Source: Candidatus Aminicenantes bacterium
GTDB lineage: Bacteria > Acidobacteriota > Aminicenantia > UBA2199
Direction of reading: 5' to 3'
Assembly (NCBI GenBank): GCA_963827565.1
Contig: CAWHBG010000003.1
Location: 867,543-931,542, forward strand
DNA length: 64,000 bases
Below the pieces are notes generated by a model. That model was not told where the DNA came from, made no database searches, and worked only from the letters and a program-made list of their open reading frames with translations. Made by a program: the position numbers and the translations under genes. Every line of letters begins with the position of its first letter. Position 1 is the stretch's first letter. Below are positions 3,013-48,122 of the stretch, one piece after another.

Positions 3013-3032
3013 GAAGTTACCTGTCCCCTTTT
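3013..3032 (-). repeat. REP-like element copy (singleton)
   Basis: gaagttacctgtcccctttt; contains the invariant core CCTGTCCCCTTTT. Intergenic, upstream of deaD. Confidence 0.85.
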
Positions 3033-3222
3033 AGATGAATTTGAGAATAATCTTTATTGTGTTATAATTACTTTTAATAGTGATATTTTTCGAAATAATA
3101 AAACACCCACATCAAATTAGATCTGGAGAATTAACATTCATTTCAGGCTCACATGAATCCGGGATTTTTTCTATTTTATCTGCACTTTCAGACGGAAGAG
3201 ATCAGCTATGAGGAAAGGAGAC

Positions 3223-4944
3223 ATGATGGATTTTAAAGATTTTGAAAATATGGGACTGGACCCCCGTTTAATTAAAGGGATCAAAGAGATGGGATTTGAA
3301 AAACCCATGCCTATTCAGGAAAAAGTAATACCCGTTTTGTTGGAAAAAGATAGAGATATGGTGGGACTGGCGCAGACGGGAACTGGAAAGACTGCGGCTT
3401 TCGGCCTTCCGTTGATCTCAAAAACAGATGTTGGCAACAAAAGTGTTCAGACCATTGTTCTGAGTCCGACTCGTGAACTATGTATTCAGATAACGAATGA
3501 TATAAAAAGTTATTCTAAATATGTTGAGGAGTTTCGCGTTGTAGCAGTTTATGGCGGTGCAAGTATTGAAGGGCAATTAAAAGAATTGAGAAAGAAACCC
3601 CAGATGATCGTTGCCACACCGGGGAGACTGCTTGATATGATCGAAAGGAGAAGAGTTGATCTTTCGAAGATCAGATCTGTAGTACTTGATGAAGCGGATG
3701 AAATGCTGAATATGGGATTTAAAGAAGAGCTGAATGCTATTCTTGAAAAAACTCCGATCTCAAAAAACACCTACCTCTTTTCAGCAACCATGCCAAGGGA
3801 GGTTGCAAAGATCGCATCCAATTATATGAGTGATGCGATTGAGATCCAGGTCGGGAGCAGGAATGCAGGGGCAGAGAATGTCAGACATGAATACTATATG
3901 GTACAGGCCAGCAATAAATATCGGGCACTCAAGCGGATCGTTGATATAAATCCCGATATTTACGGGATAGTTTTCTGTAGAACCAGATCAGACACAAAAG
4001 ATATTGCGGAGAAATTGATTGTTGATGGTTATAATGCAGATTCTCTCCATGGCGATCTTTCACAGGCTCAGCGGGACTACGTTATGCACAAATTCAGGAC
4101 AAAAAACCTCCAGATACTTGTTGCTACAGATGTTGCAGCTCGTGGATTAGATGTCGATGACCTGACCCACATTATTAATTATAACTTTCCGGATGAATTG
4201 CAGGCTTACACCCATAGAAGCGGGAGAACAGGGAGAGCTGGTAAAAAGGGCGTTTCGATTGCAATCATGCACAAAAAAGAGAAGCACAAGATAAAACAGG
4301 TTGAAAATCTTATCGGGAAAAAATTTGAATATAAAAAGGTCCCCGATGGGAAAGATATCTGTGAGAAACAGCTTTTCAGCATGATCGACAGGATGGAAAA
4401 AGTAGATGTTTCTGATTCAGAGATTGATCCGTATCTGGATGTCATCTATAAAAAACTGGATTGGCTGACAAAAGAGCAGGTTATTAAACAATTTGTGTCA
4501 CTCGAATTCAACCGTTTTCTTGAATATTATAAAGACTCTCCCGATCTTAATATTGATACCAACAGGCCGGGTAAAAAAGAGAGAGGGCGGGAGAGAGAAA
4601 GAGGTCCGAAACTGAACAGGGGTGATGTAACAAGGTTTTTTGTGAAATCGGGGAAGAGAGATAAAATAGAGCCTCCTAACATTATAGGAATGATCAATGA
4701 TATGACCGGGACCAAGGATATCCAGATAGGAAAGATAGAAATACAAGGTACCTTCTCATTTTTTGAAGTAGATAAAAAATCTGAAGGAATTATTATAAAA
4801 AATCTGAATAACGCTCAGATAAATGGAGAAAAAATCTATGTTGAAGTGGCGGAACTCCCCGGTGGAAATCCCAAGAAGCAGAAATTGAACAGGAGACCTT
4901 TCCCGAAGAAGAAGAAATCAAAGGGAAAAGTTAAAATATACTAG
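3223..4944 (+). CDS. deaD: DEAD-box ATP-dependent RNA helicase with C-terminal DbpA-type RNA-binding domain
   Basis: Motifs AQTGTGKT (I), PTRELC (Ia), VLDEADEM (II), SAT (III), HRSGRTGRAG (VI). C-terminus has the DbpA-like domain and a K/R tail. The ORF track starts at 3208, but AAAGGAG precedes the ATG at 3223, so I prefer 3223. Confidence 0.9.
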   Translation: MMDFKDFENMGLDPRLIKGIKEMGFEKPMPIQEKVIPVLLEKDRDMVGLAQTGTGKTAAFGLPLISKTDVGNKSVQTIVLSPTRELCIQITNDIKSYSKYVEEFRVVAVYGGASIEGQLKELRKKPQMIVATPGRLLDMIERRRVDLSKIRSVVLDEADEMLNMGFKEELNAILEKTPISKNTYLFSATMPREVAKIASNYMSDAIEIQVGSRNAGAENVRHEYYMVQASNKYRALKRIVDINPDIYGIVFCRTRSDTKDIAEKLIVDGYNADSLHGDLSQAQRDYVMHKFRTKNLQILVATDVAARGLDVDDLTHIINYNFPDELQAYTHRSGRTGRAGKKGVSIAIMHKKEKHKIKQVENLIGKKFEYKKVPDGKDICEKQLFSMIDRMEKVDVSDSEIDPYLDVIYKKLDWLTKEQVIKQFVSLEFNRFLEYYKDSPDLNIDTNRPGKKERGRERERGPKLNRGDVTRFFVKSGKRDKIEPPNIIGMINDMTGTKDIQIGKIEIQGTFSFFEVDKKSEGIIIKNLNNAQINGEKIYVEVAELPGGNPKKQKLNRRPFPKKKKSKGKVKIY

Positions 4945-4983
4945 CCTGAATCCTATTTTTTTTGTTTTTAAATCTGTCTGAAT

Positions 4984-5003
4984 GAAGGTGCCTGTCCCCT
5001 TTT
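4984..5003 (-). repeat. REP-like element copy (singleton)
   Basis: gaaggtgcctgtcccctttt, 40 nt after the deaD stop. Confidence 0.85.
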
Positions 5004-5096
5004 GAACAGGATTATCAAATGCGAATAGAAGTACTTCTGAACAGAAATCCATCAATAACCGTATGCTAGATATAAGATTTATATGGAGGATTTAAA

Positions 5097-6248
5097 ATGA
5101 AAACAAAATCGCTTAGGAATAATATTTTTTATTTTTTGATATCGGTTTTATTTTTGGTTGTAATTTTTTTATTTTTATTATCAATCAATCTGCGGGGAGA
5201 GATCGCGAATAAAGACAAACCTGAAAAGGGGACAGGTACCTTTCATATATCGGAACTATGGCAGGTGAGTGAAGGTGAAGGGAATCCATTCGGGAATCTC
5301 AGCAGGGGAATCCTTGTCTCTAAAGACGGCATCCTTTGCTGTTTGGACGATAAGCTTGAACGGTTCTTTCTTTTTGACAAAGACGGAAAATTAATAAAGG
5401 GATTTGGTAAGAAGGGTGAAGGGCCTGGTGAAATAAAATTTTTCAGGCAGGCAAGTTTGTATAATGCCGGGGATAAGATCGCGATTCAGGATCTGGACAG
5501 AATACACTATTTTGACTGGAATGGGAATTTCATTGAGTCTATCCCGAATCAGAGACCACGGAGCCCCATACTATTTCTGAACCGTTATGAGTTCATAACA
5601 GCTCCCAATAATATCCTCGCAGTCCCGGGAGGCATTGCCGAAGTAAAATTGGTCAATCTGAAAACCGGTAAAGAGAAACTGATCACAAAGTTTTCCATAT
5701 TCAAGGGGGGGGCAATTCAGGATGGAAATAATCAGGCTTCGTTAATTGCCAATGGGCTGACACCGCTTTTTGAACTCGGGAAATATAAAGATCGTCTTTA
5801 CTACGGGGTCAGCGATAAATATAGGATCGAAATTTCAGACATGAAGGGGAATGTGATCAGCAGTTTCGGACTGAAAAGGGAAAAATCCAAAGTGACTGAG
5901 GAGGAAAAAGTAGAGCCGATTCTCCGGGGGACAAAAGGGTTGGCACCAGAAGAATTAATAAGAACTCTGGCAAAAAAATTACCAAATGAAGAGACCTATT
6001 ATACGGATATTCAGTCAATTAATGATCAGATATGGGTTTTTGTCACGAACTGGATCAGAACTAATTCCAGGCAAATTGATATTTTTTCACCGGAAGGGGA
6101 ATATTTATATCGCCGCTTCATTAAGATCGATAAAGAGGAGTCTATATTTTCCAAACCGGTGATCAATGGTAATTCAGTTTTTCTGGTTATTCAGAACGAA
6201 GATGACGAATTCCGAGTTGCAAAATATGCTATTGATCTGCCGGAATAG
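5097..6248 (+). CDS. 6-bladed beta-propeller-like exported/anchored protein
   Basis: 383 aa with an N-terminal TM/signal. Repeated ..DG.I.V.D/..F..F D..G.. blade-like pattern. N-terminus parallels the partial gene at 1-215. Contains a full REP copy in-frame at 5224-5243. Confidence 0.5.
   Translation: MKTKSLRNNIFYFLISVLFLVVIFLFLLSINLRGEIANKDKPEKGTGTFHISELWQVSEGEGNPFGNLSRGILVSKDGILCCLDDKLERFFLFDKDGKLIKGFGKKGEGPGEIKFFRQASLYNAGDKIAIQDLDRIHYFDWNGNFIESIPNQRPRSPILFLNRYEFITAPNNILAVPGGIAEVKLVNLKTGKEKLITKFSIFKGGAIQDGNNQASLIANGLTPLFELGKYKDRLYYGVSDKYRIEISDMKGNVISSFGLKREKSKVTEEEKVEPILRGTKGLAPEELIRTLAKKLPNEETYYTDIQSINDQIWVFVTNWIRTNSRQIDIFSPEGEYLYRRFIKIDKEESIFSKPVINGNSVFLVIQNEDDEFRVAKYAIDLPE
5224..5243 (+). 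repeat. REP-like element copy embedded in a CDS
   Basis: aaaaggggacaggtaccttt, a perfect consensus copy. Read in frame as (E)KGTGTF within the 5097-6248 ORF. Confidence 0.8.
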
Positions 6249-6260
6249 AGCCCGGCCCGG

Positions 6261-7823: not shown

Positions 7824-7892
7824 TTTAATTCTCCGGGATCAGATTTTAGCAATACTAAGAGAAAAAGGGAAGTAATGTTTTCCCTGAGACTC

Positions 7893-8447: not shown

Positions 8448-8568
8448 GGTAATAAATGAAAGGCAAGTGATTGTCCCTTCAGCGGTCCATTTCAGTTAAT
8501 AGACTTTTTTTACGTAACTTTTTTTCAGAAATTTCGTCTTATTATATGAATCCGGGCGAGGAGTACCA

Positions 8569-10851: not shown

Positions 10852-11328
10852 ATGAAAAAAAGAAATCTAAGTCTTATATTGTTGTTGCTGATTGTTTTTA
10901 CAGCAATGCCCTCTGACGTTTCGGCCATAGGGCCGCTTGATATATATTTTCAGGGAGGGTTGGTTACTGACAAATCGATGAGTTTCAGTCCTCTCTTATG
11001 GTCCGCAGGGCTTAACCTGGATTTTAAATTTGGAAATATGATGATGCTCAGTCCTGAACTGAACATAGTTGTTAGTGAGTTTAATTTTGATTATATACTT
11101 CTTGAACCTGCTTTGACGATCAATTTCAGACTTGCAAATTTTTTTGTAGGTGCCGGTCTTACAAAATTTTTTGAATTAGGAGATGATTTCTGGTCAAATA
11201 AATTTTCTCTCAAGATCCATGGGGGACTAAAACTGATCGGAATTAAATTGCGTGCTTACATGATCATCCCATTTGATGAATTGTTCAAGCCTACAATTTA
11301 TGGAGGCACTATAGGTTTCGGATTCTGA
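10852..11328 (+). CDS. small exported beta-barrel-like protein (hypothetical)
   Basis: 158 aa with a signal peptide. Alternating hydrophobic pattern and a C-terminal ..GGTIGFGF. Confidence 0.4.
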   Translation: MKKRNLSLILLLLIVFTAMPSDVSAIGPLDIYFQGGLVTDKSMSFSPLLWSAGLNLDFKFGNMMMLSPELNIVVSEFNFDYILLEPALTINFRLANFFVGAGLTKFFELGDDFWSNKFSLKIHGGLKLIGIKLRAYMIIPFDELFKPTIYGGTIGFGF

Positions 11329-12447: not shown

Positions 12448-12554
12448 TGGCAGGAAAGTTGGGGGAAAAATAATTTTTTTGACCTAACCATTTACAAAAT
12501 TTTGCAATTTTCAGATAATATTTAATTCAGATTTATAAATTTAGGGAGGAAAAA

Positions 12555-15761: not shown

Positions 15762-15781
15762 AAAAGGGGACAGGTACCTTT
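15762..15781 (+). repeat. REP-like element copy (singleton)
   Basis: aaaaggggacaggtaccttt, a perfect consensus copy, intergenic. Confidence 0.85.
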
Positions 15782-15822: not shown

Positions 15823-16284
15823 TTAGTTTTCTATAAATTTTTCAGTCCAGGCGATTATGGAAGGGGGGATAACTGCGACCAGAAAGTTAAAAAACAGGCA
15901 AAGTATAAGCCCCAGTGCATAATGTCCACGGTGAGTGAGTACCAGCCAATTGTATCTAACCGACAAGACAGTCCCAAATAGTAGTAGAGGGGCAATCACA
16001 CCAAATATATTGTATGAGAGCCTGACAGAATCGAGGACCACCCCTTTCTCTCTCTCATCCAGTTTATTAGATTTTGTCCTGTACAACTTCCATATACCCG
16101 GCTTTACAATGGAGAAATAGAAAGTACTACAAGCAATCAAAAGAAATATAAGAGTCACAATTACCAATAATCCGTTCCAGTATAAATATTCACCGATTAA
16201 GAATAGAGTAAAAAACACTATTGTGGCAATGTACATACTCAAAACGCCTACTCTCCTCGATCTAATTGAAAATTGTTCACCCAT
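15823..16284 (-). CDS. hypothetical membrane protein co-transcribed with an XRE regulator
   Basis: 153 aa with 4 TM helices. AAAGGAGG RBS. Start overlaps the HTH gene stop by 8 nt. Confidence 0.5.
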   Translation of the reverse strand: MGEQFSIRSRRVGVLSMYIATIVFFTLFLIGEYLYWNGLLVIVTLIFLLIACSTFYFSIVKPGIWKLYRTKSNKLDEREKGVVLDSVRLSYNIFGVIAPLLLFGTVLSVRYNWLVLTHRGHYALGLILCLFFNFLVAVIPPSIIAWTEKFIEN

Positions 16285-16622: not shown

Positions 16623-16675
16623 AAAAGGGGACAGGTACTTTTGAGTTTATATCGGAATGATGCCTGTCCCCTTTT
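16623..16675. repeat. inverted REP doublet
   Basis: 16623-16642 aaaaggggacaggtactttt and 16656-16675 aatgatgcctgtcccctttt, 13-nt spacer. Sits between the ABC operon end and the HTH gene start. Confidence 0.85.
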
Positions 16676-19062: not shown

Positions 19063-20557
19063 CTAAATTTTCGATTTTTTCACGGTGTCAAACTCATCAA
19101 CGATCTCTTTTGACGGTAATTTGTCAAGGAGGCTTGCCAGGATGATTGCAAGGGCCGAAAACAGGAAGCCTGGAACGATCTCATACAGGTCGAATATTCC
19201 CCCGGAAATATTTTTCCATATCAAGACAGTGACCCCACCGGTAAAGATCCCTGAAATTGCACCATTGGCAGTCATCCTTTTCCAGAAAAGTGATAGGATC
19301 ACAACAGGGCCGAAGGTTGCACCAAATCCTGCCCATGCATACGCTACCAGCTCAAGTACACTGCTCTCCGGATTAAGAGCAATCATAAATGCAATAGCGG
19401 CAACAAGAATTACTGATAAACGGCTGACCCATACAAGCTCCTTGTCTCCTGGAGTTCTCTTCAGTACTATCCGGTACAGATCTTCAGTAATTGCGGATGA
19501 AGTTACAAGTAATTGAGAGTCAGCGGTACTCATGACTGCTGCAAGAATTGCGGCCAGGAGAATTCCGCCTATAAGAGGTGTGGTCAATTGACTCACAAGA
19601 ACCATAAATACTGTTTCCGATGCGGCTTTCCCGACCAGAGGGTTTTCTGTTAAAAGCACTCTTCCTACAATTCCGACTACAACTGCAGCAGATAAACTTA
19701 TTATTACCCAACCCATGGCAATACGTCTGGCTTTTTTTATTTTATCAGAAGAGCTGATCGCCATAAATCTGGCAAGTATATGTGGCTGCCCGAAATATCC
19801 GAATCCCCACGCCACAAGGGACAATACTGGAATAAATTTTAAATTCTTTCCCGAGGTTGAAGTAAATATATTCAGAAGTTCCGGGTTTATTACTTTGGCT
19901 TTAGCAATCGTCTGTTCAAACCCGCCCAATGCGGATACGCCAATGACGGGAATTATAATAATTGCAAAGAACATCAGCATTCCCTGAAAAAAATCTGTCC
20001 AACTGACGGCCATGAATCCGCCGAGAAATGTATAGCCGATGATCACAAATACCCCGATCGAAAGTGCAAAGATATAAGGAATATTAAAAACGGTATTAAA
20101 AAGTTTGGCCCCTGCGACAAATCCAGAAGATGTGTATAAGGAGAAAGAAGATTATAATAAAAACTGCAGAGAGTACTCTCAATATCCCGCTTTTATCCCG
20201 GAAACGGTTCTCAAAAAACACAGGGAGGGTAATTGAATTGCCGGCGATCTGAGTATATTTTCTCAATCTCTTTGCAATAAATTTCCAGTTGAGATAGGTC
20301 CCGACCATCAAACCCAGGGCGATCCATCCGGCTTCTAGTCCTGCAAGATATGCATATCCGGGCAAACCCAGGAGCAGCCAGCCGCTCATGTCCGATGCCT
20401 GTGCGCTGAGTGATGTCACCCATGCATTCAGCCCCCTTCCTCCGAGGACATAATCAGAAAGATTTTTTGTTCTGTTATAAAAATACCAGCCGATGCCCAT
20501 CATGAAAATAAGATAAATTGCGAATGAAATGAAAGTTCCTGCACTTGCTCCTGACAT
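19063..20557 (-). pseudogene. putP: sodium/proline symporter PutP (SSS family), frame-disrupted by one 1-nt indel near 20130-20136
   Basis: ORF 20096-20623 gives MSGASAGTFISFAIYLIFMMGIGWYFY..SLSAQASDMSGWLLLGLPGYAY. Shifting one base after ..FFLL gives YTSSGFVAGAKLFNTVFNIPYIFALSIGVFVIIGYTFLGGFMAVSWTDFFQG, which joins ORF 19063-20046 seamlessly. ATG at 20557 with a GGAG RBS. Confidence 0.85.
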
Positions 20558-20635
20558 GATTAATCTCCGGAATTGATTTAAAAAAATATAATAAACATTA
20601 CAATAAATTATATCAAGCGACAATATGTGAAATCC

Positions 20636-20693
20636 AAAAGGGGACAGATACCTTTAACATTTTAAAAAGGTGATATGGTACCTGTCCCCTTTT
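20636..20693. repeat. inverted REP doublet
   Basis: 20636-20655 aaaaggggacagataccttt and 20674-20693 tatggtacctgtcccctttt, 18-nt spacer. Lies in the divergent region between putP and the surface-protein gene. Confidence 0.85.
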
Positions 20694-20972: not shown

Positions 20973-23822
20973 ATGAAGAAGAGATTTTATTTTATAGTTA
21001 TTTGGTGTATTTTTTTTATCCAATTAAATGCATCTGTTAAAATGGTTGGAAGTATTGAAGAATTGACCGGATTGAAAATAAGTTGTCATCCTCATTTTTC
21101 AATTATTGTTGAATTTCCAAAGGATATAACATATTAAAAGCCAGACAAATGTGGAGAAAATGAGGCGGAGTGGACAGTTGATCATGATCTTAATTTGTTA
21201 TGGGCTCAACCAGATAACCTGGGCAGTCATGACTGTACAATTAAAGTTGTAATAGATGCGTATAAAGATATTTTACTCAGGTTAAGAGTTGAAAAGGAAT
21301 CCAAAAATCTGATCCATACAATTGTATTGAAAAAAGCCGTTTTTGTACATAAGAACGATATGAAAGATACAGCTATTATTGAGAATGGTAATTCACCGGA
21401 AAGGAAAATAAAAAAAGGTAAGAATGAAAATGCTGTTCCAGAAAATTCGTTCGAAATTTTAAATATAAGTGTTAAAGGAAATGAAGATTCTGAGATTACA
21501 AAAAGAATTACTGAGAGTAATCCTGATATAGGTGTTTTAGATAATTCAGATACCAATAAATCTCCATTTAAACTTGAATCATACTTTTCTCTTTCCGGGG
21601 GTACTCAGAGTCTTAAAGGTTCCTCTTTCATGATGAATGGTGAGATTATAGTTGCCGGAAAAAATAAAAGCGGAATATTTTTTCAGGGAGCAGGAAAAAC
21701 CGTTATAAATAATATGTTAAAGCAGTATGGTTTTTCTGTTGGTGCAGGATTTGAACCGGGTAAATTGGGGTTTTTCCTGTTTGGTGATCTTCTTTTACAT
21801 AAGTTCGGTGATGAATTCAATTCTACGACCCATTTTCAGATTAGACCATCATTCCGGTACAGATTGTCGGATAAGGTTCATTTGTCAGGCTTCTAGGCAA
21901 TTCCACTCGGTGCATGGCAGTACACAGGTGTTGAAGTTCCAGGAGAACCAGGATTCGGATATCTATAATAAATCATTATCTCATGTGGGGGTTGATTTTT
22001 CAGTTTACTTAAAGAATATGTTCGTTGATCTCCGGGCATTGTTTGCTGAGGGATCTGCATTTGGGATTGATCTTAAGGCAGGATATGAGTTTATCAGAAA
22101 AATATTTGTAACAATTAATTATATGTATCAGACAAGTGGTGACTATGAATATGTGGACGGAATTTCTAATAGAAGTCAGAATCGGTATTGGCGTTACTTT
22201 TAATATGAGAAATTTTGAAAACAGAGTAAAGAACAGGATTATTTTCAGGCCGGATTATCCGATGGTTATTGTTGATAAAAAAGAACTGGATGAAAGAGAT
22301 TCAGATATAGAACCTAAAATCAGCCTAATCGGGACTCCAACTACCGGTTATGCTCCCCTTGATGTAAGTTTTACTGCTAGCCACAAGGGATTTAAAGGTA
22401 GTAATGTAGAAATAACCTGGTATTTTAATACAACATATTCAACTACTACGAACAAAAAAGATAGTGGATTTACCTATACGACTCCAGGTTCTTATGACTG
22501 CTATGTTGAGGGTAAGGATGAATTTGGGAATTTTGCTAAGAGTAATACCGTAACAATAACTGTTCTCGACACGATAACGGATGATGATGAATTTACAATA
22601 TCCTCAAGTGTTTCAGGTGGGACTGGAATTATAACTCCGGAGGGGACAACAATAGTAAATCTTAATCAGGATCAGAAATACGCAATGACTCCCGGAGATG
22701 GATGGTTTGTAAGTAAAGTTCTTGTTGACGGTAAAAGCGTTGGTGCAGTGACGGAGTACATTTTCAAAAAGGTTTCTGCAAATCACACGATCTCTGTTGA
22801 ATTTACTGACTCAGAGTCGGAAAGTTATACTGTTTCGGCAAGTTCCGGTACTGGGGGTTCGATCTCTCCGAATGGAAATATTACTGTAACCGCAGGAGAT
22901 TCAATAGAATTCACAATGACAGCAGACGATGGATATGAATTGGATACTTTAAAGGTTGATGGGAGTAATGTAAGTGTATCTGGAAATACTTTTACTCTCA
23001 CAAATATCCAAAAAGACCAGACTGTTGCAGTGACATGGAAATTAAAAACTTATACTGTTACTGGAACGGTAAGAAATAGTCAGTATGGAACAATTTCTCC
23101 GGTTTCAGCCATAGTTGAACATGGAAGTGATGCAGTAATTAGTTTCACTCCTGAAGATGGTAACAAAGAGACAATAAGGTATTGGATAAACGGAACAGTA
23201 ACTAATGCCAAAGGGAGTACAGGAGTTACCATCAGCAATGTGACTTCCAACCAAACTGTAGAAGTTGAGTTTGACTGGATATATTACAATATCACGGTTC
23301 GTCTTGTGAAAATCGGAGATTATTCTAATTTAGCCAGTGCTACACTGAACCCATCAGCAGGGACCTATTCCTACAGGGCGGGATCCAATGCGACATTTAA
23401 TTGTAATTTGGCAACCAATACTTAGTTACTCGTGTTGATATAAATGGAAGAACGACTACAGACGGGGTAAATGTAACATTTGTTAATGTTCAGAGAAATC
23501 ATTATCTTGAATTTTATATAAGAAGGGGGTAGTTGGCCTAAATCTTAATATCTACGGATGTTTTTACGGCAGTATATGGGATAATTGGGGTCATTCAACA
23601 AACAATGGGGGAACCAAAACGTGGACAATTCCTGCAGGAGAACCAGTAACAGTACATTTTTCACCGGCCACACCATATCCAGCCAATGTGGATCATTACA
23701 TATTAACAACACAGAACGGCCAGCTTATATGGCTTCCCGCACAATGGACAATTAACAGTCCAAAAGCAGGTGATTGCCTGCATGTTAAGTGTGTCGATGA
23801 AGACGGAAACATTATAATGTGA
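20973..23822 (+). pseudogene. large surface protein (signal peptide, beta-barrel-like region, PKD domain, 4 InlB-B-repeat-like domains, C-terminal domain), multiply frame-disrupted
   Basis: Starts MKKRFYFIVIWCIFFIQLNA, with an in-frame TAA at 21135-21137. ORFs 21195-21896, 21727-22203 and 22136-23425 overlap in shifting frames. The barrel-like part reads ..GVDFSVYLKNMFVDLRALFAEGSAFGIDLKAGYEF..RIGIGVTFNM. PKD-like segment at about 22307-22567 (GYAPLDVSFTA..YTTPGSYDCYVEGKDEFGN). About 75-aa repeats run from about 22592 to about 23510 (YTVSASSGTGGSISPNG.., YTVTGTV..GTISP..). After further shifts at about 23415 and about 23525, the reading continues to a TGA at 23820-23822. Confidence 0.55.
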
Positions 23823-25510: not shown

Positions 25511-27043
25511 CTATTTCAAAACCGGTGATACAAATGCCGGCATATCTGAGATTGCTCCGTTTTTATCAATAACTCCGACTGAAAAAGAGATTCCGGAGAG
25601 TTCTTTTGCCCGGAATTCATAAGTTCTTCCATCTTCCGGGTTCACACGATCGACCTCAGAGACCGAATTCCCCTCTTTTTTGTATATTATATACTTATCA
25701 ATTCTTTTGTCCTTAGAGGGCGATTCTGACCAATTAAGCTTGATAATATACTCTTTTAAGAAGACGCTCTGGTTCAAAAACGCTTCTGCAGAAACATTTG
25801 TTAGGGGGAAGTCCTTCGGGTCGTTTATAACCTGCGTATGGATAAAAATTCAGCATCATATATTGTTCAGGATTCAAATAGATCATCAATATTTGTAAGA
25901 GAGTAATATCCATTGCTGTTTCCGCCCCACCCGAAATTAATGTGAACATGATCTAATATCCATTATAAATTCTATATCCATCAATAACTACCTGATGAGG
26001 TTGGCCATACAAAACTGAAACTTCAGGAGCTATAGACAAAATTGTAGGTAAATTTTTGTCAATTTGAAACTTTGCTTGATTAAACCAAGCCTTGTCATTA
26101 GGAAAATTTAAACTGCAAATTTGATACATATCATCAGAATACAATAGGTTGGTAATCAGTTCTGGATTATATCCACCAATTGCGGCGCTGATCCCCAAAC
26201 TCCATAAGACATTTCAAAAGTGCGACACCGACATCAAACATAGGGTTGCGACTGCCATGTTTTTCTTCATCTGTGGAATCGGTACCGACTCTATCTTTCA
26301 TTTCCACCATTTATATTCTTTATCAAAGTTTGCAGTTAAAGTCTGTTTGCTTAATTATCATAATATGTTGTTCAGATCCTTTTCCTCTGACTGGCCATTC
26401 AAAATAATTAATAACTTGAGCAAAAGCAGTTGCCACACAGCCAGTTGGTGTTTTTCCGTAACCATCTATGACAGGGTAATAATATTATATGGTTCATCTT
26501 GATCCCATTTGGTGATTATAAGAGGTTCTACTTCTTGGTGTCGATTTGAACATTTGTAGCAGAAAGATCACTTATATGAGATATGACTTTATAATAAGCT
26601 TATTGATAAGGTTCTGGTTATTACCTTTCCAAATTCAATTGATATCCGGAATGTTTTTCAATTCAGCGATTTTTTTATGATAGTTTTGATAATTTTCAAA
26701 AAGCAATATTCTATAAAAGGATACTCTCCGGAAGTATTGAATCGTTATTAAGAGAATACATTTTTATAGGTGGCAGATAATCCTGCCCTGAGATAATCAC
26801 ATATCCTTTTGGATAGAAATCAAATACATAGGCAACCAAAATATTTTCTCTGACAATTTCCTGTCCTTTCATAACCCGGACCTGATCACCAAAATCTTCT
26901 TCAAGGATCTCGGTCCAGTTCTCAGCAATTATCTGAGCTTCATTAAAAGTGATTTCCCTGGCATAAAAGATACCGGCAATCAGGATGATCGATAACAAAA
27001 TTGTAAATGAGTTTTTTAAGCATATTGTTCTTTCTCCTTGCAA
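25511..27043 (-). pseudogene. peptidase C10 (streptopain-like cysteine protease) with N-terminal Spi-type pro/inhibitor domain and C-terminal Ig/FN3-like domain, multiply frame-disrupted
   Basis: Minus-strand pieces in shifting frames: 26711-27043 signal plus ..ITFNEAQIIAENW..VAYVFDFYPKGYVIISGQDYLPPIKMYS (Spi-like); about 26500 ..TKWDQDEPYN..; about 26440 ..GKTPTGCVATAFAQVINYFEWP (catalytic Cys); 25953-26198 ..GQPHQVVIDGY (His); about 25900-25950 DHVHINFGWGGNSNGYYSL; 25511-25777 C-terminal beta domain. Confidence 0.75.
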
Positions 27044-27301
27044 TTAACAAAATTAGATTACTCCAGGAGTCAAAAGTGATGAACCATGAGGCTGGATACA
27101 TTTTCTCCCTACAAAATATTTAGTTAGGAACATCAGAGGGGGCTTCTATATAGATTGCCCGGAATTAGAGATATCATTTTATACCAGTAATACAAATGGC
27201 AATATATAAGATACTGCTTCATTATATTTCCCTCAAAGTGTATTTTAGTAAAACCTGTTGTAGAATCAATAAATAATTAAATTTATTTTAAATTATTTAT
27301 T

Positions 27302-27321
27302 AAAAGGGGACAGGCACCTTT
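27302..27321 (+). repeat. REP-like element copy (5' flank of RAYT)
   Basis: aaaaggggacaggcaccttt. Confidence 0.85.
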
Positions 27322-27378
27322 TTGTTAATATTGTTGAAATTAGTAAAATTATATATTATATCTATATTGAAATAAATT

Positions 27379-28281
27379 ATGGCAAGATTAAGAAGAATAA
27401 AAGTTAAAGATTCTGATGCATATTATCATGTGATGTCAAGAACTGTAGGCCAGGAATTTCTCCTACAAAATAGTGAAAAAGATAAATTTATTGAAATAAT
27501 GTTTGATTTGTCAAAATTATTCTTTGTAAAAATAATAGGATTTTCAGTGATGAGCAATCACTTTCATCTACTAATAAAAATGGAAAGTAATGAGTCTTAT
27601 ACTGATGAAGATATATTAGACAGGTTAGAATTCTATTATAAAAGAGAATTAGTGCTTAGTAAATGTGAGATTAATAAATATAGAGAATCATTAGGCGATA
27701 TTTCGAATTGCATCAAATTTATAAAACAGAAGTTTTCTTTATGGTTTAACAAGGTTAATAACCGAAAGGGACATTTTTGGTCAGATCGTTTTAAGTCAGT
27801 TTTAATAGAAAGTGGGGAAAGCTTATTAAATTGCTTAGCTTATATCGATTTAAATTCAGTTAGAGCAAACTTAACTGAGCTTCCTGAAGAGTATAAATGG
27901 AGCAGTGTTTATTATAGAACAAAAAAAAATGATCATTTATCATCACTTAGTTTTGATGGAATAAATACAAATTCAGGTTGTGACTTTTTATCTGAATATT
28001 TGATGTATTTATATTTTGCAGGAGATATCACCGAAAAAAATAGAATAAAAGAGAAATCAATAAAAAATGATAATAGTTTTGTAATAAAGAGAGGAGTTTT
28101 TAGTAAAAAGCAAAATACTTTTACAAATTGTATGGTTATGGGATCATTTAATTTTATTCAGACCTCATATAAAATGTTTGGAAATTCAATTCTTACAAAG
28201 AATAGAAAACAAGCATATAATGCAGAATTTTCAGATAATATATATTCAGTCCGACGAAAATATACACAAAGTGTTCATTAA
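27379..28281 (+). CDS. REP-associated tyrosine transposase (RAYT; IS200/IS605 Y1 HUH family, COG1943-like)
   Basis: 300 aa, intact. N-terminal AYYHVMSRTVGQEFLL; HUH motif SNHFHLLIKM; GHFWSDRFKSVLIES; catalytic-Tyr helix LAYIDLNSVRANL (equivalent to YIxxNPVRAGL). Confidence 0.8.
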   Translation: MARLRRIKVKDSDAYYHVMSRTVGQEFLLQNSEKDKFIEIMFDLSKLFFVKIIGFSVMSNHFHLLIKMESNESYTDEDILDRLEFYYKRELVLSKCEINKYRESLGDISNCIKFIKQKFSLWFNKVNNRKGHFWSDRFKSVLIESGESLLNCLAYIDLNSVRANLTELPEEYKWSSVYYRTKKNDHLSSLSFDGINTNSGCDFLSEYLMYLYFAGDITEKNRIKEKSIKNDNSFVIKRGVFSKKQNTFTNCMVMGSFNFIQTSYKMFGNSILTKNRKQAYNAEFSDNIYSVRRKYTQSVH

Positions 28282-28455
28282 CTGAAATTAACTTCTTTTT
28301 TTTGATTAAGTCTATAAATATAAAAAAATTCTCAAAATTTATAAAAAATTTACAATTACTCAATAATTTTAAAGATAAAACAAATATTTTCTTTTTGATT
28401 TACTAATTTATTTTTGCTAATTCAAAACAAAATTCTTTAAAATGATAATAATTGT

Positions 28456-28475
28456 AAAAGTGCCTGTCCCCTTTT
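28456..28475 (-). repeat. REP-like element copy (3' flank of RAYT)
   Basis: aaaagtgcctgtcccctttt. Confidence 0.85.
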
Positions 28476-28686
28476 TATTAATTTACATGTAGGTTCCTAT
28501 AAATAATTAAAATTAATAAGAAAAATCCTTTTTTATAAACCTTTGTTTGAGGTTTGCAATTGATCATTTTCCTTTAAAATTTGAGTTATTTTATTGTGAA
28601 TTGTTAACTTTGATAATCTTTTAACTATTTTATTGCTTTTTTTTTATTTTATTTTTAAAATCATTTTGTATTTTGAGAGGTGGTAA

Positions 28687-29922
28687 GTGTTAAAGAAATT
28701 AAGGTCCTTGATTTTAGATGGAAATGATCTTGCAGAACACTATGAGAAAAAAGGGGATTTAAATAAGGCATATAAAGAATATACAAAACAGAACAATTAT
28801 AAAAAGGCGGCAAATGTTCTTGAAAAAATGAATGATTGGCATAGTGCAGCCAACATTTATATTGAAAAAAATGAGGTTGACCTGGCAAGAAGAGCAATTG
28901 AAAGTTGTTTTAATAAAGGCAAGGTTTGGGAATCTTTCAACTTATCGAATGGAAAAAAAGTTACAATTGAAGAGTGGCTGAAAGATAACAATCAGACCCA
29001 GAGGTTCGTCAGGTATGTTCACAACACCAAGAGGCTTAATCAAAATGGCACACCATTGATAATTGTTCTTGCAGATAAATTAAAAAATATTGAAGAGTAT
29101 AAGAATGCGGCCCAACTATATAATAATGCTTACTTTTTGGTAAATAAAAATGTGTTAAATAAAAGACTTATCAGGCATGAAGAATGGCTTCTTAGTGCTG
29201 CTGAATGTTATTCAAAAATAGGTAAATTTGATGAAGCAGCTGAATGTATGAAAGAGCTTATTGTGACTGAAGTTGAGATTGGGACAGAGTTTTCCGGGGG
29301 ATATAAAGTAAATCCATATCGAAATTATAAGGTTATGCTCGAAAAAGCCAGGGAATATAAATCTCTCCCTGAGCTACTGGATCTATTGGAAGATTTTGAT
29401 CCGTTTAATATTTCTTATAATCTATTAAAAATGAATGAAGTTGAGTTATCAAAAGCACATTTTTTCAAATATTTCGGAAGAGTAGTAAAGAAAAATTTGA
29501 CAGAGCAGGAAAGAGAAGTGAGAAATGAAAAGATAAGTTATTGTCTAAATCAATATATTATTTACCATAGGGAAAGGAAGGAATATCTGTTGGCTGCTGA
29601 AATAGCTTTGTTAAATTCTCAGAAAAAAATTGCTTCTGATCTTTATCAACTGGCAAAAGCAGCAAAACAAGTTGCAAAGAGTGAAGCTGTCAATTTAAAA
29701 AATATTCAAATGAAGGCTGAAAATAAAACAGAAGAGGCCGGAGAAGCTAAATCTGAAGCGGAAGTTGATTTGAAATGCCATCATTGTGGTGAACTTGTAG
29801 AGGAAGAATGGGAATATTGTCCAAATTGTGAAAATTCACTTATGTTTAACATGTGTACCTGTGGAGAAAAAATCCAATCGCGCTGGAAAGTGTGCCCTGC
29901 CTGCGGCAAACATATAGAATAA
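28687..29922 (+). CDS. hypothetical helical-repeat protein with C-terminal double zinc ribbon
   Basis: 411 aa, GTG start after GAGAGG. N-terminal TPR-like helices (LAEHYEKKGDLNKAYKEYTKQNNYKKAANVLEKM..). C-terminus CHHCGELVEEEWEYCPNCENSL...CTCGEKIQSRWKVCPACGKHI, i.e. two CxxC/CxC...CxxC knuckle pairs. Confidence 0.5.
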   Translation: MLKKLRSLILDGNDLAEHYEKKGDLNKAYKEYTKQNNYKKAANVLEKMNDWHSAANIYIEKNEVDLARRAIESCFNKGKVWESFNLSNGKKVTIEEWLKDNNQTQRFVRYVHNTKRLNQNGTPLIIVLADKLKNIEEYKNAAQLYNNAYFLVNKNVLNKRLIRHEEWLLSAAECYSKIGKFDEAAECMKELIVTEVEIGTEFSGGYKVNPYRNYKVMLEKAREYKSLPELLDLLEDFDPFNISYNLLKMNEVELSKAHFFKYFGRVVKKNLTEQEREVRNEKISYCLNQYIIYHRERKEYLLAAEIALLNSQKKIASDLYQLAKAAKQVAKSEAVNLKNIQMKAENKTEEAGEAKSEAEVDLKCHHCGELVEEEWEYCPNCENSLMFNMCTCGEKIQSRWKVCPACGKHIE

Positions 29923-29967
29923 AACTAAAATTTTGCAACTTCTTATAAGTACAATCTTATTTGAAGA

Positions 29968-29987
29968 AAAGGTGCCTGTCCCCTTTT
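29968..29987 (-). repeat. REP-like element copy (singleton between convergent genes)
   Basis: aaaggtgcctgtcccctttt. Confidence 0.85.
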
Positions 29988-30018
29988 AATTTGTCTGGCA
30001 ATTCATTCCCTTTTGGGC

Positions 30019-31606
30019 TTATTTGTATTTGCGGATCCCTGAACCGAAATGGAATTTATCTGAGATCGTTATAGGGAGTTTTCCCCTCATTTTAGATTTT
30101 CCCGATAAAACAGAGAAAAGTGCTTCTATCTGGATATCTCTTGAACCATAGGTCAAAACTATTGTTTCTGCATTACTTAAATATTCGGCAATATAAGGGC
30201 TGTTTGCACAGACAATTATTGAATCATTTCTTAATTCCAATATATCCTTAGCGATGGATTTATTCGGGATAGTTGTTCCAGGAATGATCGAAAATAATAA
30301 TATGATCATATTCTAAAATTCTCTTTTCTCCGCATCAGTGATTTTTAAATTATTTTCAGGGAGGAGTATTTCACACTCAGAAAAGTACCTGTCCCCAATT
30401 GACCAAAGTGTATTTTCATCTTTACCATTATTTATGTTTGCTGAATGGGAACTTTTTCTCTGATCAATGATCAGTACACTTTTTCTCCTGTCAAGAGGGA
30501 TCAATCCTATTCCGTTTTTTAAGCACAGTAATTGATTCCCTTGCGATTTTTTTCTCCAGTTTAATATGTTTTCTGAGTGATGGTTTCCTGAATCTCTCCC
30601 ATATGTTTCTTTTTTTTATACTTTTCTTCAGTGTCGCTACTCTCCTCAGGGATTGATAAATCCTTGAAGCGCTTACCTCACCAAACTCAACTTTAGATCT
30701 CATCAAGCTAATCAACTCTTTTTGTAATGATAATGAGTGGCTGACAGAAAAAACATCGAGGGAACTGATATTAAATCCCTCAATTACTTTTTCTGATGAA
30801 AAATTATCTTTTACGGCACTCATCTCAATACAGTCTGAAAATAATACTCCGCGAAAATTCATTGATTCTCGGAGAAGTTCAACGGTAATCTCAGGTGAGA
30901 AGGTTGCAAGGTTGTCTGATATAAGGGGAAATCTGACATGTGCTGTCATTAATGAATTAACACCTTCTCTGATCAGTTTTGTGAATGGCGGAAGGTTGAT
31001 TTCTGAAAGGAAGTTATTGTCAATCTCTGATATCGGGATCTCAAGGTGAGAATCTGCATCTGCATGTCCATGTCCGGGAAAATGTTTTCCGCAACTGAGA
31101 ATTTTTCCTTTTTTCAATCCAAGAAAAAATTCAGTTCCGTATTCAGACACAATAGACGGATCATCAGAAAAAGACCTTATCCCGATAACCGGATTTTCCG
31201 GTTTTGAATTAACATCGAGAACCGGTGCAAAGACCCCGTCTATACCAAGAGATCTCATCTCTTTTCCAATGATCTTTCCCGCTATCCCTGCATTCTTTTT
31301 TTTTCCGGTTGCTGCTAATGCCATATGGGAAACAATTGTACTTCCAGCTTCTCCCAACCTTACTATCGGACCGCCTTCCTGGTCAATGAATATAAGAGGC
31401 GATGGTTTAGTCAGTTTGTGTATTTCCGAAGTTAATTGCCTGAGTTGACCAGGAGATTTATAATTTCTTGAAAAAAGTATTACAAACCCGACTTTCTCAT
31501 CATGTATCAGAGATCTTTCCTCTTCTGAAAGAGAAGTCCCTTTAACCCCTATCATGAATAATTGCCCGATCATTTCATTCGGCTTGGACATTTTCGGATT
31601 GCCCAT
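30019..31606 (-). pseudogene. nagZ: glycoside hydrolase family 3 (NagZ/beta-N-acetylhexosaminidase-like, two-domain form), frame-disrupted
   Basis: The N-terminal domain is intact (KHFPGHGHADADSHLEIP, IDQEGG). There is a frameshift in an A6 run at about 30515-30520: removing one A turns ..VLKKRNRIDPS* into ..VLKNGIGLIPLDRRKSVLIIDQ. An in-frame TAG sits at 30313-30315, followed in frame by N-MIILLFSIIPG... A REP remnant lies at 30381-30396. Confidence 0.8.
30381..30396 (-). repeat. partial REP-like sequence inside the GH3 reading frame
   Basis: aaaagtacctgtcccc matches 16 nt of the 20-nt element but lacks the TTTT end. Read on the minus strand as ..IGDRYFS.. Confidence 0.45.
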
Positions 31607-32846: not shown

Positions 32847-33531
32847 ATGGAAATAACTTACCTTGCGGATGACATTCCTTTTCCTGACCCCGCATATGCT
32901 GATAAAAGTGGTCTGATTGCTGTAGGAGGATCATTAACAATTCCAAGATTGATTGAAGCATATTCAAAAGGAATATTTCCCTGGTATTCTGAGGGCGATC
33001 CTGTTTTATGGTGGTCACCCGATCCCAGAGTGCTTCTGTTCCCTGAAAATTTACACGTTTCAAGAAAGATGAAAATTTTGTTGAGAAAGGGAATTTTCAG
33101 AGTTACTGTTAATAGCGAATTTGATAGAGTTATTGAAATGTGCGGCATGCCCAGGAGAAACGGGGAAGGAACCTGGATCACCGAAGAGATGAAAACAGCA
33201 TATACACAACTTCATAAAATGGGGTTTGCCCATTCTGTTGAAGTGTGGAGCGGTGATACCTTGCCGGAGGATTATATGGGGTAAGTTTCGGGAAAATGTT
33301 CTTCGGGGAATCAATGTTCTCCTAGTTTCCAATTCATCAAAATTCGGATTTATCAAACTAACAGAGTTTTTAAGGAAAAGAAAATTCTTATTTATAGATT
33401 GCCAGGTAGATACAGATCATCTCAGGTCGCTTGGAGCAGTTTCTGTAAGCCGGAAGAAATTTTTAGAAATGCTTGGGAATGGGATAAATATTAACAGAAT
33501 GAATAAAACAAAATTTCCGCCATTTCTGTAA
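32847..33531 (+). pseudogene. aat: leucyl/phenylalanyl-tRNA--protein transferase, frame-disrupted by two shifts about 55 nt apart
   Basis: Frame 0: ..PVLWWSPDPRVLLFPE..GTWITEEMKTAYTQLHKMGFAHSVEVWSGDTL. Frame 2 (33263-33322): AGGLYGVSFGKMFFGESMFS. Frame 1: VSNSSKFGFIKLTEFLRKRKFLFIDCQVDTDHLRSLGA. All three are colinear with the Aat family consensus. Confidence 0.85.
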
Positions 33532-43153: not shown

Positions 43154-43163
43154 ATGAGAAGTT

Positions 43164-44183: not shown

Positions 44184-44312
44184 AAAAAAATAGTATATGA
44201 AAACCGGCCATATCTCAAGTTTAAAATCGGCTGTTCTTGACTTGACCTACCTTACATGTTAATTCTAACAGACCGGATATCTTCAGAAGTGAGGTGAAAA
44301 GGGGCTTTACAA

Positions 44313-44876: not shown

Positions 44877-44957
44877 TTTATAATATCTGAAAATACCGGA
44901 CTTATTCTTATAGACAGACACCCGATTCTCAATTAGAATACTTATCTGGAGATTATA

Positions 44958-45485: not shown

Positions 45486-45516
45486 TATAACCGGAATAAA
45501 AGAGGATGGAAAAGTT

Positions 45517-46684: not shown

Positions 46685-46823
46685 TTTGATATAATTTTCT
46701 GGAAATATTAAGTTAGCAGGGAATCATCGTTGTGTTTGTTTTATTCTCGGTTTTGGGAATCCGGTATCTTTTCAGTGAAGTACTCGGTGTATTCTAAACA
46801 TAAGTCAGTTTTTAGGTAATCCA

Positions 46824-46874
46824 AAAAGGGGACAGGTACCTTTGTGTGTAAAAGAAAGGTACCTGTCCCCTTTT
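46824..46874. repeat. inverted REP doublet (perfect 20-bp hairpin)
   Basis: 46824-46843 aaaaggggacaggtaccttt and 46855-46874 aaaggtacctgtcccctttt are exact reverse complements, 11-nt spacer. T4 follows on both strands. Confidence 0.9.
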
Positions 46875-46932
46875 GTTCAATTTGCATTAATTAGTTTGAC
46901 GTGATAATTTAACCCAACTGGAGATTTATATA

Positions 46933-47502
46933 ATGTACCTTTTTTTTGATACTGAGACTACTGGGCTTCCCAGGAATTGGAAAGCTCCTTTAAGCGATTT
47001 GGATAATTGGCCGAGGATGGTCCAGATCGCCTGGATAGTTTTTAATGAGAATGGAGATAAAATAGATTCAAAAAATTATATTATTAAACCTGAAAATTAT
47101 ATTATTCCAACAGAATCATCTGACATTCATGGAATAACTACTGAAAGAGCCCTCTCTGAGGGAGATGACCTGACTTATGTCCTTGCAGTCTTCAGTGATT
47201 ACATAAACAGGGCTGATAAACTAGTGGCTCATAATATGTCTTTTGATGAAAAAATTGTGGGTGCCGAATTCTTGAGAAAAAATATTAAAAACAAACTTTT
47301 CTCAAAAGAGAGAATTTGCACGATGATGAGTTCAAAGGAGTTTTGTGCTATTCCTGGATCTTATGGACTGAAATGGCCGACCTTATCTGAGCTTCACAAG
47401 AAATTATTTGAGAAAGATTTTGAAAATGCCCACGATGCCTATTCTGACATAACAGCCACTGCGGATTGTTTCTGGAAAATGAAAGAATTAAAAATCGTAT
47501 AG
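46933..47502 (+). CDS. DEDDh 3'-5' exonuclease (DnaQ/epsilon-like)
   Basis: 189 aa. ExoI FFDTETTGL, ExoII VAHNMSFDEKI, ExoIII HDAYSDITATADCF. Confidence 0.8.
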   Translation: MYLFFDTETTGLPRNWKAPLSDLDNWPRMVQIAWIVFNENGDKIDSKNYIIKPENYIIPTESSDIHGITTERALSEGDDLTYVLAVFSDYINRADKLVAHNMSFDEKIVGAEFLRKNIKNKLFSKERICTMMSSKEFCAIPGSYGLKWPTLSELHKKLFEKDFENAHDAYSDITATADCFWKMKELKIV

Positions 47503-47511
47503 ACAGAAAAA

Positions 47512-47973
47512 CTATTCACACCCTTTTTTTTCTACAGTATAGATAATTGATGCAATTTTCCATTTGCCTTTGTCCCTGATAAGGCTGAAGGAGTCTACGC
47601 CACAATGACTGAATTTTCCGTCAATATAAAATTTATATTGTGCCCAAACGACGGCAATGTTTTTATGGATCAGAATTTTTGGATTGTTAATAACCTCTTT
47701 ATATTTGCCCTTTGTTTTCGGGAGAGATTCAATCAGGGTTTTATAGTTGGTAAATCTGATACTGAATGATTCACCTTCTTCTCTTATGGAAAAGTTGCTT
47801 CCTTTGACCATCAAAATTTCCTTCGCCAACTCCATATCACCTATTTCCAGTACTTTAAAGAATGTATTTACAATTTCAAGTACCTTTTCCTCTTCCTGTT
47901 TGTCTGCTCCCGAGGTAAAAAACGTCAGTAAAAATATAATGGATACTATTAAAACAGCTTTTAAGTTTTTCAT
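47512..47973 (-). CDS. exported NTF2-like (SnoaL/DUF4440-like) protein
   Basis: 153 aa with a signal peptide. ..CGVDSFSLIRDKGKWKIASIIYT is a typical cone-fold C-terminus. Weak assignment. Confidence 0.4.
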   Translation of the reverse strand: MKNLKAVLIVSIIFLLTFFTSGADKQEEEKVLEIVNTFFKVLEIGDMELAKEILMVKGSNFSIREEGESFSIRFTNYKTLIESLPKTKGKYKEVINNPKILIHKNIAVVWAQYKFYIDGKFSHCGVDSFSLIRDKGKWKIASIIYTVEKKGCE

Positions 47974-48039
47974 TTACTGCTCCTGATGATCTCATCATAG
48001 TCAAACCGGACATTTAATACAATTCTCTCTCACTCACTC

Positions 48040-48122
48040 AAAAGGGGACAGGCACCTTTTCAGTTTAATTCAGAATTTGAATTTCAGAAATTATAAATCA
48101 GATAAGGTACCTGTCCCCTTTT
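48040..48122. repeat. inverted REP doublet with long spacer
   Basis: 48040-48059 aaaaggggacaggcaccttt and 48103-48122 taaggtacctgtcccctttt, 43-nt AT-rich spacer containing ttcagaa twice. Confidence 0.85.

Follow-up and report, generated by a model that had tools for sequence, protein, structure and literature searches.

A 20-mer, AAAGGTRCCTGTCCCCTTTT, recurs through a 64,000-nucleotide stretch of a Candidatus Aminicenantes genome (contig CAWHBG010000003.1, positions 867,543 to 931,542; hereafter the window), and two of its copies face each other across a gene for a Y1/HUH tyrosine transposase homologue. What kind of repeat is this, and how does it belong to the gene? An earlier note on the same DNA took it for a member of the repetitive extragenic palindrome (REP) or REPIN families, and the gene for a REP-associated tyrosine transposase (RAYT). 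We instead read the 20-mer, with a probability of roughly 78%, as the terminal inverted repeat (TIR) of a TIRtron, a unit with a TIRYT-type Y1/HUH gene, and the other 13 copies as its non-autonomous derivatives. As part of that reading, and at the same odds, four doublets would be miniature left-right ends without the gene, resembling miniature inverted-repeat transposable elements (MITEs) or REPINs, and the remaining derivatives would be solo ends. Three direct observations carry it: the anatomy of the repeat, its association with Y1 genes across deep divergence, and its conservation at orthologous sites.

Units of this kind have been described before. Di Nocera, De Gregorio and Rocco (2013; PMC3733652) reported RAYT-like genes that have TIRs instead of REPs, naming the genes TIRYTs and the units TIRtrons; many of the TIRs lie at similar distances from the TIRYT gene and share the motif GGGGWSAS (repeated in PMC6006769), and some TIR families are moderately abundant and dispersed as singles, dimers and groups. 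Quentin et al. (2018; PMC6006769) equate the TIRYTs with TnpA-Y1 subclass 2.1 and with RAYT Group 1 of Bertels et al. (2017; PMC5581495), in which flanking 16-mers number about 12 per replicon. Subclass 2.1 is marked by NH[VYF]H, Y[IV]xLNP, SS and a long C-terminal tail, and subclass 2.3, which derives from it, by an insertion between beta3 and alphaC (PMC6006769). The window repeat is a TIR-type, REP-like family of a TIRYT-like gene, and as such only a new example of a kind already published.

The Y1/HUH gene and its flanking repeats

The gene is bounded by AAAAGGGGACAGGYACCTTT on its left and by the reverse complement of this sequence on its right. The features of the locus are given here with their counterparts on L127, a related contig (CALODR010000009) from a metagenome-assembled genome (MAG):

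27379..28281, + strand: Y1/HUH tyrosine transposase homologue of 300 aa by Pfam Y1_Tnp and fold, TIRYT-like and, by its motifs, close to subclass 2.1/2.3
27302..27321, - strand: left terminal inverted repeat, 57 nt upstream of the Y1 gene; the + strand reads AAAAGGGGACAGGCACCTTT; L127 counterpart at 9923
28456..28475, + strand: right terminal inverted repeat, 175 nt past the Y1 stop codon, reverse complement of the left one; L127 counterpart at 11072
27322..27349, + strand: putative promoter-like site, TTGTTA-16-TAAAAT, beginning at the base after the left repeat

The open reading frame (ORF) 27379-28281 matches Pfam Y1_Tnp (3.9e-12), and its best-matching model is NCBIfam REP_Tyr_transpos (NF047646; 2e-15), though at 56.9 bits it stays under the cut-off of 80. 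In an alignment of 21 homologues, 37-72% identical, the catalytic residues are invariant: N60-H61-x-H63 of the HUH motif (position 62 is F in the window protein, giving NHFH) and Y155 in AYIDLN, together with R162/A163 and P169-E170-x-Y172-x-W174. S175-S176 are at least 90% conserved and are followed by a conserved C-terminal region. Searched by sequence, neither the protein alone nor the 21-sequence profile matched anything in the PDB at E <= 1. The AF2 model (pLDDT 82) has as its best PDB fold match 4ER8_A, the Escherichia coli TnpA-REP bound to a REP hairpin (E 5.6e-7, TM 0.73 on the target), followed by the IS608, ISDra2 and IS200 transposases. In the model, an additional helical insertion separates the HUH strand from the core helix that follows.

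Against the published TIRYT proteins (Additional file 5 of PMC3733652), blastp matched the window protein to gbm2474, pfs148A, dau2153 and aba2776 at E of about 1e-17, with 20-26% identity; relative to these named TIRYTs it has an insertion of about 45 aa and a C-terminal domain of its own. There was no match to the E. coli RAYT b228 at E <= 0.01. The proposal that the gene is a RAYT thus survives in that REP_Tyr_transpos is its best model, and fails in that the score is below cut-off and the protein groups with TIRYTs and not with the E. coli RAYT. A second Y1 gene was not found in the 64-kb window, and no tnpB-like ORF adjoins the first.

Fifteen copies and a remnant

At up to three mismatches the 20-mer matches 16 times in the window (0.01 expected by chance), namely at 15 copies and at a remnant, 30381, which reads AAAAGTACCTGTCCCCAATT and matches in 17 of 20 bases; as a search string for both strands the motif is CCTGTCCCCTTT. 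The 13-mer core, CCTGTCCCCTTTT, has 14 exact copies on the two strands and one with a single mismatch (20636, which reads TCTGTCCCCTTTT), compared with a mean of 0.08 and a maximum of 1 in dinucleotide-preserving shuffles, the comparison that the earlier note had proposed. The copies, coordinates and strands listed in that note, its core with one exception and its two subvariants all proved correct: GTGCC occurs in copies 4984, 27302, 28456, 29968 and 48040, with 16656 reading GATGCC, and GTACC, which includes AGGTACCT, in the remaining copies. When the copies are aligned with 70 nt of flank, sequence conservation ends at the edges of the 20-mer.

The note did not recognise the sequence as a published REP consensus. 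Part of it is published: GGGGACAG, present in all 15 copies, fits the TIRYT-flanking motif GGGGWSAS (PMC3733652, PMC6006769). The full 20-mer is not in the main text of PMC3733652, leaving aside its Figure 9, and a full-text literature search for GGGGACAGG or CCTGTCCCC returned only unrelated eukaryotic papers.

The window holds seven solo copies, the two beside the Y1 gene included, four doublets and the remnant. All four doublets (16623/16656, 20636/20674, 46824/46855 and 48040/48103) read AAAAGGGGACAGG...CCTGTCCCCTTTT, with spacers of 11-43 nt that are unrelated to one another. Apart from the two copies listed above, the family comprises:

3013..3032, + strand: solo copy in the divergent region between an ornithine cyclodeaminase-like gene and a DEAD-box helicase gene
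4984..5003, + strand: solo copy, 40 nt past the helicase stop codon
5224..5243, - strand: solo copy, genic, in frame in ORF 5097-6248 and translated EKGTGTF
15762..15781, - strand: solo copy, 42 nt past the stop of the gene 15823-16284 (- strand); L127 ortholog at 556
16623..16675, unstranded: doublet with left arm 16623-16642 and right arm 16656-16675, behind an ABC-2 transporter gene; -16.3 kcal/mol, z -6.3
20636..20693, unstranded: doublet in the divergent region upstream of an SSF symporter gene; hairpin of -14.4 kcal/mol, z -4.2
29968..29987, + strand: solo copy, 46 nt past the stop of a TPR/zinc-ribbon gene, between convergent genes; L127 ortholog at 12539
30381..30400, + strand: degenerate copy within a GH3 gene, past the N-terminal domain
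46824..46874, unstranded: doublet in the interval between an ATP-grasp and an RNase T-like gene, with a perfect 20-bp stem; -22.2 kcal/mol, z -8.0
48040..48122, unstranded: doublet in the interval between a lumazine-binding-like and a YkuD gene, with a 43-nt spacer; -22.4 kcal/mol, z -7.5

All but two lie between genes, as had been claimed; the genic ones are 5224 and the remnant in GH3. Gene ends directly precede 7 of the 11 intergenic sites, and three sites lie in divergent promoter regions. The in-frame copy 5224 indicates that the repeat is tolerated in a protein linker; it encodes ..PEKGTGTFH.. right after the hydrophobic N-terminal signal or anchor segment of a predicted beta-propeller protein. 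We also considered whether the solo copies are decayed doublets and rejected this, because the best partner within 120 nt of any of them scores 10-12 of 20, which random windows also reach.

The Y1 gene lies in a low-GC island (window 26000-30000, 0.29-0.31 compared to about 0.38), together with a TPR and double-zinc-ribbon gene (28687-29922), which sits between the same-orientation copies 28456 and 29968, and with fragments of one peptidase C10 / Spi-inhibitor gene. The same arrangement of genes is found in L127.

The repeat and Y1 genes in other genomes

The motif is not confined to the window. Scanned in one genome per species, the exact 20-mer occurs in at least 118 stretches of 8 kb each. 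Among the matches listed, it spans at least eight phyla and host GC contents from 0.29 to 0.74: Planctomycetota (many), Acidobacteriota (including Aminicenantes and Thermoanaerobaculia), Campylobacterales, Verrucomicrobiae, Actinomycetota (Collinsella, Propionibacteriaceae, Solirubrobacteraceae, Anoxymicrobiaceae), Bacillota (Desulfoscipio, Clostridia), Deltaproteobacteria/Geomonas and other Pseudomonadota. In four of these listed stretches a Y1 gene lies directly beside the 20-mer. Two (L098 and L100) have a Y1 gene of 220-234 aa tightly enclosed by copies or near-copies of the 20-mer, one 25-40 nt ahead of the start codon and the other 0-10 nt past the stop. A third (L038, 256 aa) has the same compact layout with a degenerate right end, and in the fourth (L064) the gene of this cassette is frameshifted. 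Compared with the window protein, the proteins of these stretches show 20-25% identity, and compared with each other 30-69%; those of L098, L100 and L064 are 45-57% identical to the TIRYTs gbm2474, dau2153 and rba2408. Among the listed matches, the exact 20-mer is found next to, or at the ends of, Y1 genes that encode proteins with only 20-45% identity. In L038, from a Solirubrobacteraceae MAG, a tRNA gene (5542-5613) lies immediately beside the compact TIRtron.

The association can also be approached from the protein. We collected 80 metagenomic loci with homologues of the window protein (35-61% identical) and counted all 8-mers in their flanks without bias. The top upstream word is GGGACAGG, found in 66 of the 69 loci with at least 100 nt of upstream sequence; its usual position is 70-120 nt ahead of the start codon, with a TTGACA hexamer 6-10 nt further on. 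Downstream, its complement CCTGTCCC is the joint-top word (17 of 72 loci), tied with an AT-rich one. When copies of the repeat lie within 150 nt of each other, in the window and in the at least 118 other stretches, the left-right arrangement (AAAAGGGG...CCCCTTTT) occurs 56 times and right-left twice, a bias that has the polarity of the gene-bearing TIRtron. One metagenomic contig (L120) carries two Y1_Tnp genes of the window-protein subfamily within 3 kb (454-1287 and 3001-3924), together with a Y2_Tnp fragment, so that the family is not always single-copy.

Homologues are also found on plasmids. One from Pseudomonas aeruginosa, a TIRYT gene (NZ_CP116719.1, 16138-17618), has a perfect 22-bp inverted repeat, AAAGGGGACAGATTTATTTTCC, at both ends; this repeat and the window motif have only the core AAAGGGGACAG in common, and on this 24-kb plasmid tblastn puts the query protein at three places. 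For a plasmid-borne homologue from Collinsella the flanks lack a GGGGWSAS box. Phages were considered as vectors of the repeat and set aside, the exact 20-mer being absent from 2.9 million viral contigs.

Outside the window the 20-mer takes several further forms. In Planctomycetota (L004, L006, L011, L021, L022, L042, L048 and other loci) it forms doublets of 71 nt in which the spacing is always 51 and the 31-nt spacer, ttgtgcgaagcacccgaagggccgttccggc, is conserved; this unit resembles a true REPIN, and it is present in both orientations and at many sites per genome. Elsewhere (L017, L047, L054, L065, L082, L103 from Desulfoscipio geothermicus; L007, L043) the 20-mer forms imperfect hetero-doublets with a sister arm, AAAAGGGGACTGGCTCCTTTT, with two or three mismatches in the stem, reminiscent of the bulged REP hairpins by which strands or ends are told apart. 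In a third form, the 20-mer is the tip of a longer palindrome (L018, L029, L030 and L052 from Collinsella; L038, L085 and L087 from Solirubrobacteraceae; L095, L014 and L102), the outer stems of which vary even within one genome (ccgggaa.../...ttcccgg compared to ctgagaa.../...ttctcag). Outer stems of at least 8 bp accompany 12.5% of copies, compared to 3.8% in a flank-swap control, and could reflect insertion into pre-existing hairpins or local selection for a stem. The idea that the 20-mer is generally the conserved loop of hairpins with co-varying outer stems was rejected, as such stems occur in only some lineages and are absent in the window.

Conservation at orthologous sites

The contig L127 is syntenic with the window from 15.6 to 37 kb. 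Most proteins encoded by neighbouring genes share 63-96% identity, and the Y1 proteins share 69%. Over 21 kb, L127 has a copy of the repeat at each of the seven corresponding sites, among them the left and right repeats of the Y1 gene, the SSF-upstream doublet, the solo copy that follows the TPR/zinc-ribbon gene and the degenerate one in GH3. In pairwise alignments of the intergenic regions the orthologous cores are identical at 12-13 of 13 positions and form islands in DNA that is otherwise poorly alignable. The SSF-upstream doublet lies at 5371/5410 in L127, with a diverged spacer, and the doublet 16623/16656 is reduced there to its left arm. No site has been gained or lost since the window genome and L127 split.

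The copy within GH3 is identical at all 20 bases (window 30381-30400, L127 12914-12933), and the L127 GH3 gene is intact; the repeat is therefore an old intragenic copy that now evolves as coding sequence. L128, which encodes a more distant homologue (53% identical) in another gene context, contains no copies in 21 kb other than the two that flank this gene, and the amplification is thus lineage-specific. With a single-copy syntenic gene and copies at the same sites in a diverged relative, the system looks old and static. The window copies are old, and have been either selected or homogenised.

Four genes that are broken between reading frames in the window each form one intact ORF in L127: the SSF symporter (19063-20623), a 735-aa protein (20973-23425), the GH3 glycosidase (30019-31606) and the Leu/Phe-tRNA protein transferase (32847-33531). 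Four broken genes in 15 kb suggest indel errors in a long-read assembly and not real pseudogenes.

Hairpins, and what else the repeat could be

The earlier note had each unit fold as AAAAGG/CCTTTT around a 9-nt loop. This hairpin can be drawn, but single units fold at only -0.8 to -3.0 kcal/mol, with z from +0.4 to -2.1 relative to shuffles, and none is significant. The four doublets, in contrast, fold strongly (-14.4 to -22.4 kcal/mol, z -4.2 to -8.0) in the form A4-stem-loop-stem-T4, with a stem of 13-20 bp. The foot of the doublet hairpin is AAAAGGGG; the unit has GGTRCC and neither GTAG nor GTGG. At the gathering score, Rfam recognises nothing in the window, and in ten other motif-bearing loci only tRNAs and one c-di-GMP riboswitch; sub-threshold matches on the doublets were discarded as generic microRNA-type hairpin models.

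These results bear on the likeliest of the alternatives, namely that this is a canonical REP/REPIN-RAYT system in which the 20-mers are REP hairpins, the doublets REPINs and the neighbouring gene the RAYT that mobilises them. Much of the overall picture fits: a Y1 gene, single-copy and syntenic like a RAYT, lies between inverted copies, the other copies are mostly extragenic and come as singles and inverted pairs, and both the best family model and the best fold match (4ER8) are of the REP type. To this extent the first identification as a REP/REPIN family holds, as dispersed, mostly intergenic repeats that flank a Y1 gene and pair into hairpins. It does not hold for the class. The family is not canonical REP because the unit has no hairpin and no GT[AG]G foot, and the doublets do not look like classical REPINs because their spacers are not conserved, unlike the 31-nt spacer shared by the planctomycete doublets. 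In addition, the protein matches published TIRYTs and not b228, and falls short of the NCBIfam cut-off (56.9 compared to 80), and the same repeat bounds compact IS-like cassettes in other phyla, which REPs do not. We therefore consider a canonical REP-RAYT system unlikely.

Somewhat less likely again is that the repeats are host cis-elements, bidirectional intrinsic terminators or 3'-end mRNA stabilisers kept by selection, with a link to the Y1 gene that is only historical. The positions just behind gene ends (7 of 11 intergenic sites) suit this, as does the orientation of the four solo copies behind genes, which by inspection is the same in each and would end the transcript in ...CCUGUCCCCUUUU / CCCCUUUU. 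So do the shape and stability of the doublets (-14 to -22 kcal/mol), the 56:2 bias, since left-right is the sole polarity that puts a T-run past the stem on both strands, and the retention of cores at orthologous sites while the flanks diverged. However, a stable stem is lacking in the solo copies and the T-run is no longer than 4; of the sites, three fall within divergent promoter regions and two within genes. A scan of the window with a terminator consensus called none of the doublets, their loops exceeding the 3-8 nt that the scan admits. Moreover, neither the identity of the 20-mer in phyla with GC contents of 0.29-0.74 nor its presence at both ends of Y1 genes can be accounted for by selection for termination.

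That the Y1 protein or another regulator binds the GGGACAGG box as a double-stranded operator, the dispersed copies being its regulon or nucleoid-organising sites, seems very improbable. In its favour, almost all homologous loci have the box 6-10 nt ahead of a -35 hexamer, often without a right repeat, three window sites lie in divergent promoter regions, and copies are kept at orthologous sites. Against it, the majority of copies in the window lie behind genes or between genes that converge or run in the same direction, and not over promoters (an alternative raised at the outset), the compact bounded cassettes and the plasmid-borne copy look like mobile DNA, and the invariant catalytic HUH and Tyr residues argue for retained nuclease chemistry.

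A possible mechanism, and what weighs against it

How a TIRtron could have given rise to this family we infer in terms of binding, cleavage, mobility, autoregulation and termination. The Y1 enzyme would recognise the GGGGACAGG box, most likely on single-stranded DNA, where the arms of a doublet, or the ends of the gene cassette, could pair into a REP-like stem. Its HUH/Tyr site would then cut and rejoin one strand, in the way of IS200/IS605 and of E. coli TnpA-REP, for which cleavage has been demonstrated. Over time, such events could seed gene-less doublets and solo ends at sites that tolerate them, whether gene ends, intergenic DNA or protein linkers. The left repeat abuts the -35 box of the Y1 gene itself, and so the protein probably autoregulates; the left-right doublets may serve the host as bidirectional terminators or 3' stabilisers.

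Several points speak against the TIRtron reading. The seven compared sites are all common to L127, and there is thus no insertion polymorphism; the activity may be long extinct. IS200/IS605 Y1 transposases need hairpins at their ends, though a single unit here has no significant fold. As only 17 of 72 loci of the 300-aa subfamily have a right-hand repeat, many of these genes are not elements with two ends, and their box may above all serve as an operator close to the promoter. The identity of the window protein to the named TIRYTs is just 20-26%, and it has an insertion of about 45 aa and a C-terminal domain of its own. The repeats could also have been dispersed by another, compact TIRYT encoded outside the 64 kb. 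The unrelated spacers mean that the window doublets are not copies of one mobile unit. Finally, Quentin et al. did not find REP-like sequences for subclasses 2.1 and 2.3 (PMC6006769).

Implications

The locus adds a well-resolved TIRYT-type tyrosine recombinase with amplified end-repeats, in an Acidobacteriota/Aminicenantes-like genome, to a class for which later surveys reported no repeats. Less expected, though they leave the category unchanged, are the 20-mer shared across phyla, the near-universal promoter-proximal box of the 300-aa subfamily and the conservation at orthologous sites. It is conceivable, if doubtful, that the exact 20-mer is a DNA recognition element of unusually deep conservation, a cross-phylum 'universal REP' whose copies are kept by selection for a host function or by continual enzyme-driven homogenisation. 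If so, copies that are held at orthologous sites while the surrounding DNA is randomised would not be merely decaying selfish DNA; a domesticated Y1 protein might provide a host function such as termination or genome structuring, in contrast to the fast-co-evolving REP/RAYT pairs known so far.

Conservation at orthologous sites gives a way to ask whether selection keeps such repeats, and the GGGACAGG box is a ready substrate for the first binding and cleavage assays of the subclass. The repeat is also of use in annotation, as it accounts for pseudo-peptides of the 'EKGTGTF/KGACPLF' type and for small hairpins in planctomycete, acidobacterial and other genomes.

Comparison with known systems

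To our knowledge the TIRYT class has been little studied and is without biochemistry. The window system resembles published TIRtrons in having a Y1/HUH gene between non-palindromic inverted repeats at short, similar distances, in a repeat core that fits GGGGWSAS and in a family dispersed as singles and dimers. It differs from the named TIRYTs in its longer (300 aa) and divergent (20-26%) protein, which carries an insertion behind the HUH strand and a C-terminal domain of its own, and in a copy density (15 in 64 kb) that is high for TIR families described as 'moderately abundant'. With subclass 2.1 it shares NH[YF]H, Y[IV]xLN, WSS and a long C-terminal tail (in the window NHFH, YIDLN and WSS), as well as low copy number, a wide and patchy taxonomic spread and an occasional plasmid location, and with subclass 2.3 the beta3-alphaC insertion seen in the protein model; for both subclasses the likeness is one of motifs only. 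Unlike published members of 2.1 and 2.3, it has a conserved flanking box that is near-universal and, in the window lineage, amplified.

A second relative is the REP/REPIN-RAYT type of E. coli and Pseudomonas, reportedly described by Nunvar in 2010, Bertels and Rainey in 2011, and Ton-Hoang and Messing in 2012. In common are a single-copy, vertically inherited Y1 gene between cognate short repeats, dispersed extragenic copies, inverted pairs that form hairpins, and 4ER8 as the nearest solved fold. The window unit, however, has no GT[AG]G foot and is not a palindrome, and one repeat sequence spans phyla where REPs and RAYTs co-evolve into lineage-specific forms. The likeness to IS200/IS605 elements and their MITEs lies in the catalytic fold, a presumed single-strand cut-and-rejoin reaction, doublets that correspond to two ends without a gene, and the compact cassettes of other genomes; the window system differs from IS200/IS605 in that it lacks tnpB, subterminal imperfect hairpins, multiple identical gene copies and signs of recent transposition.

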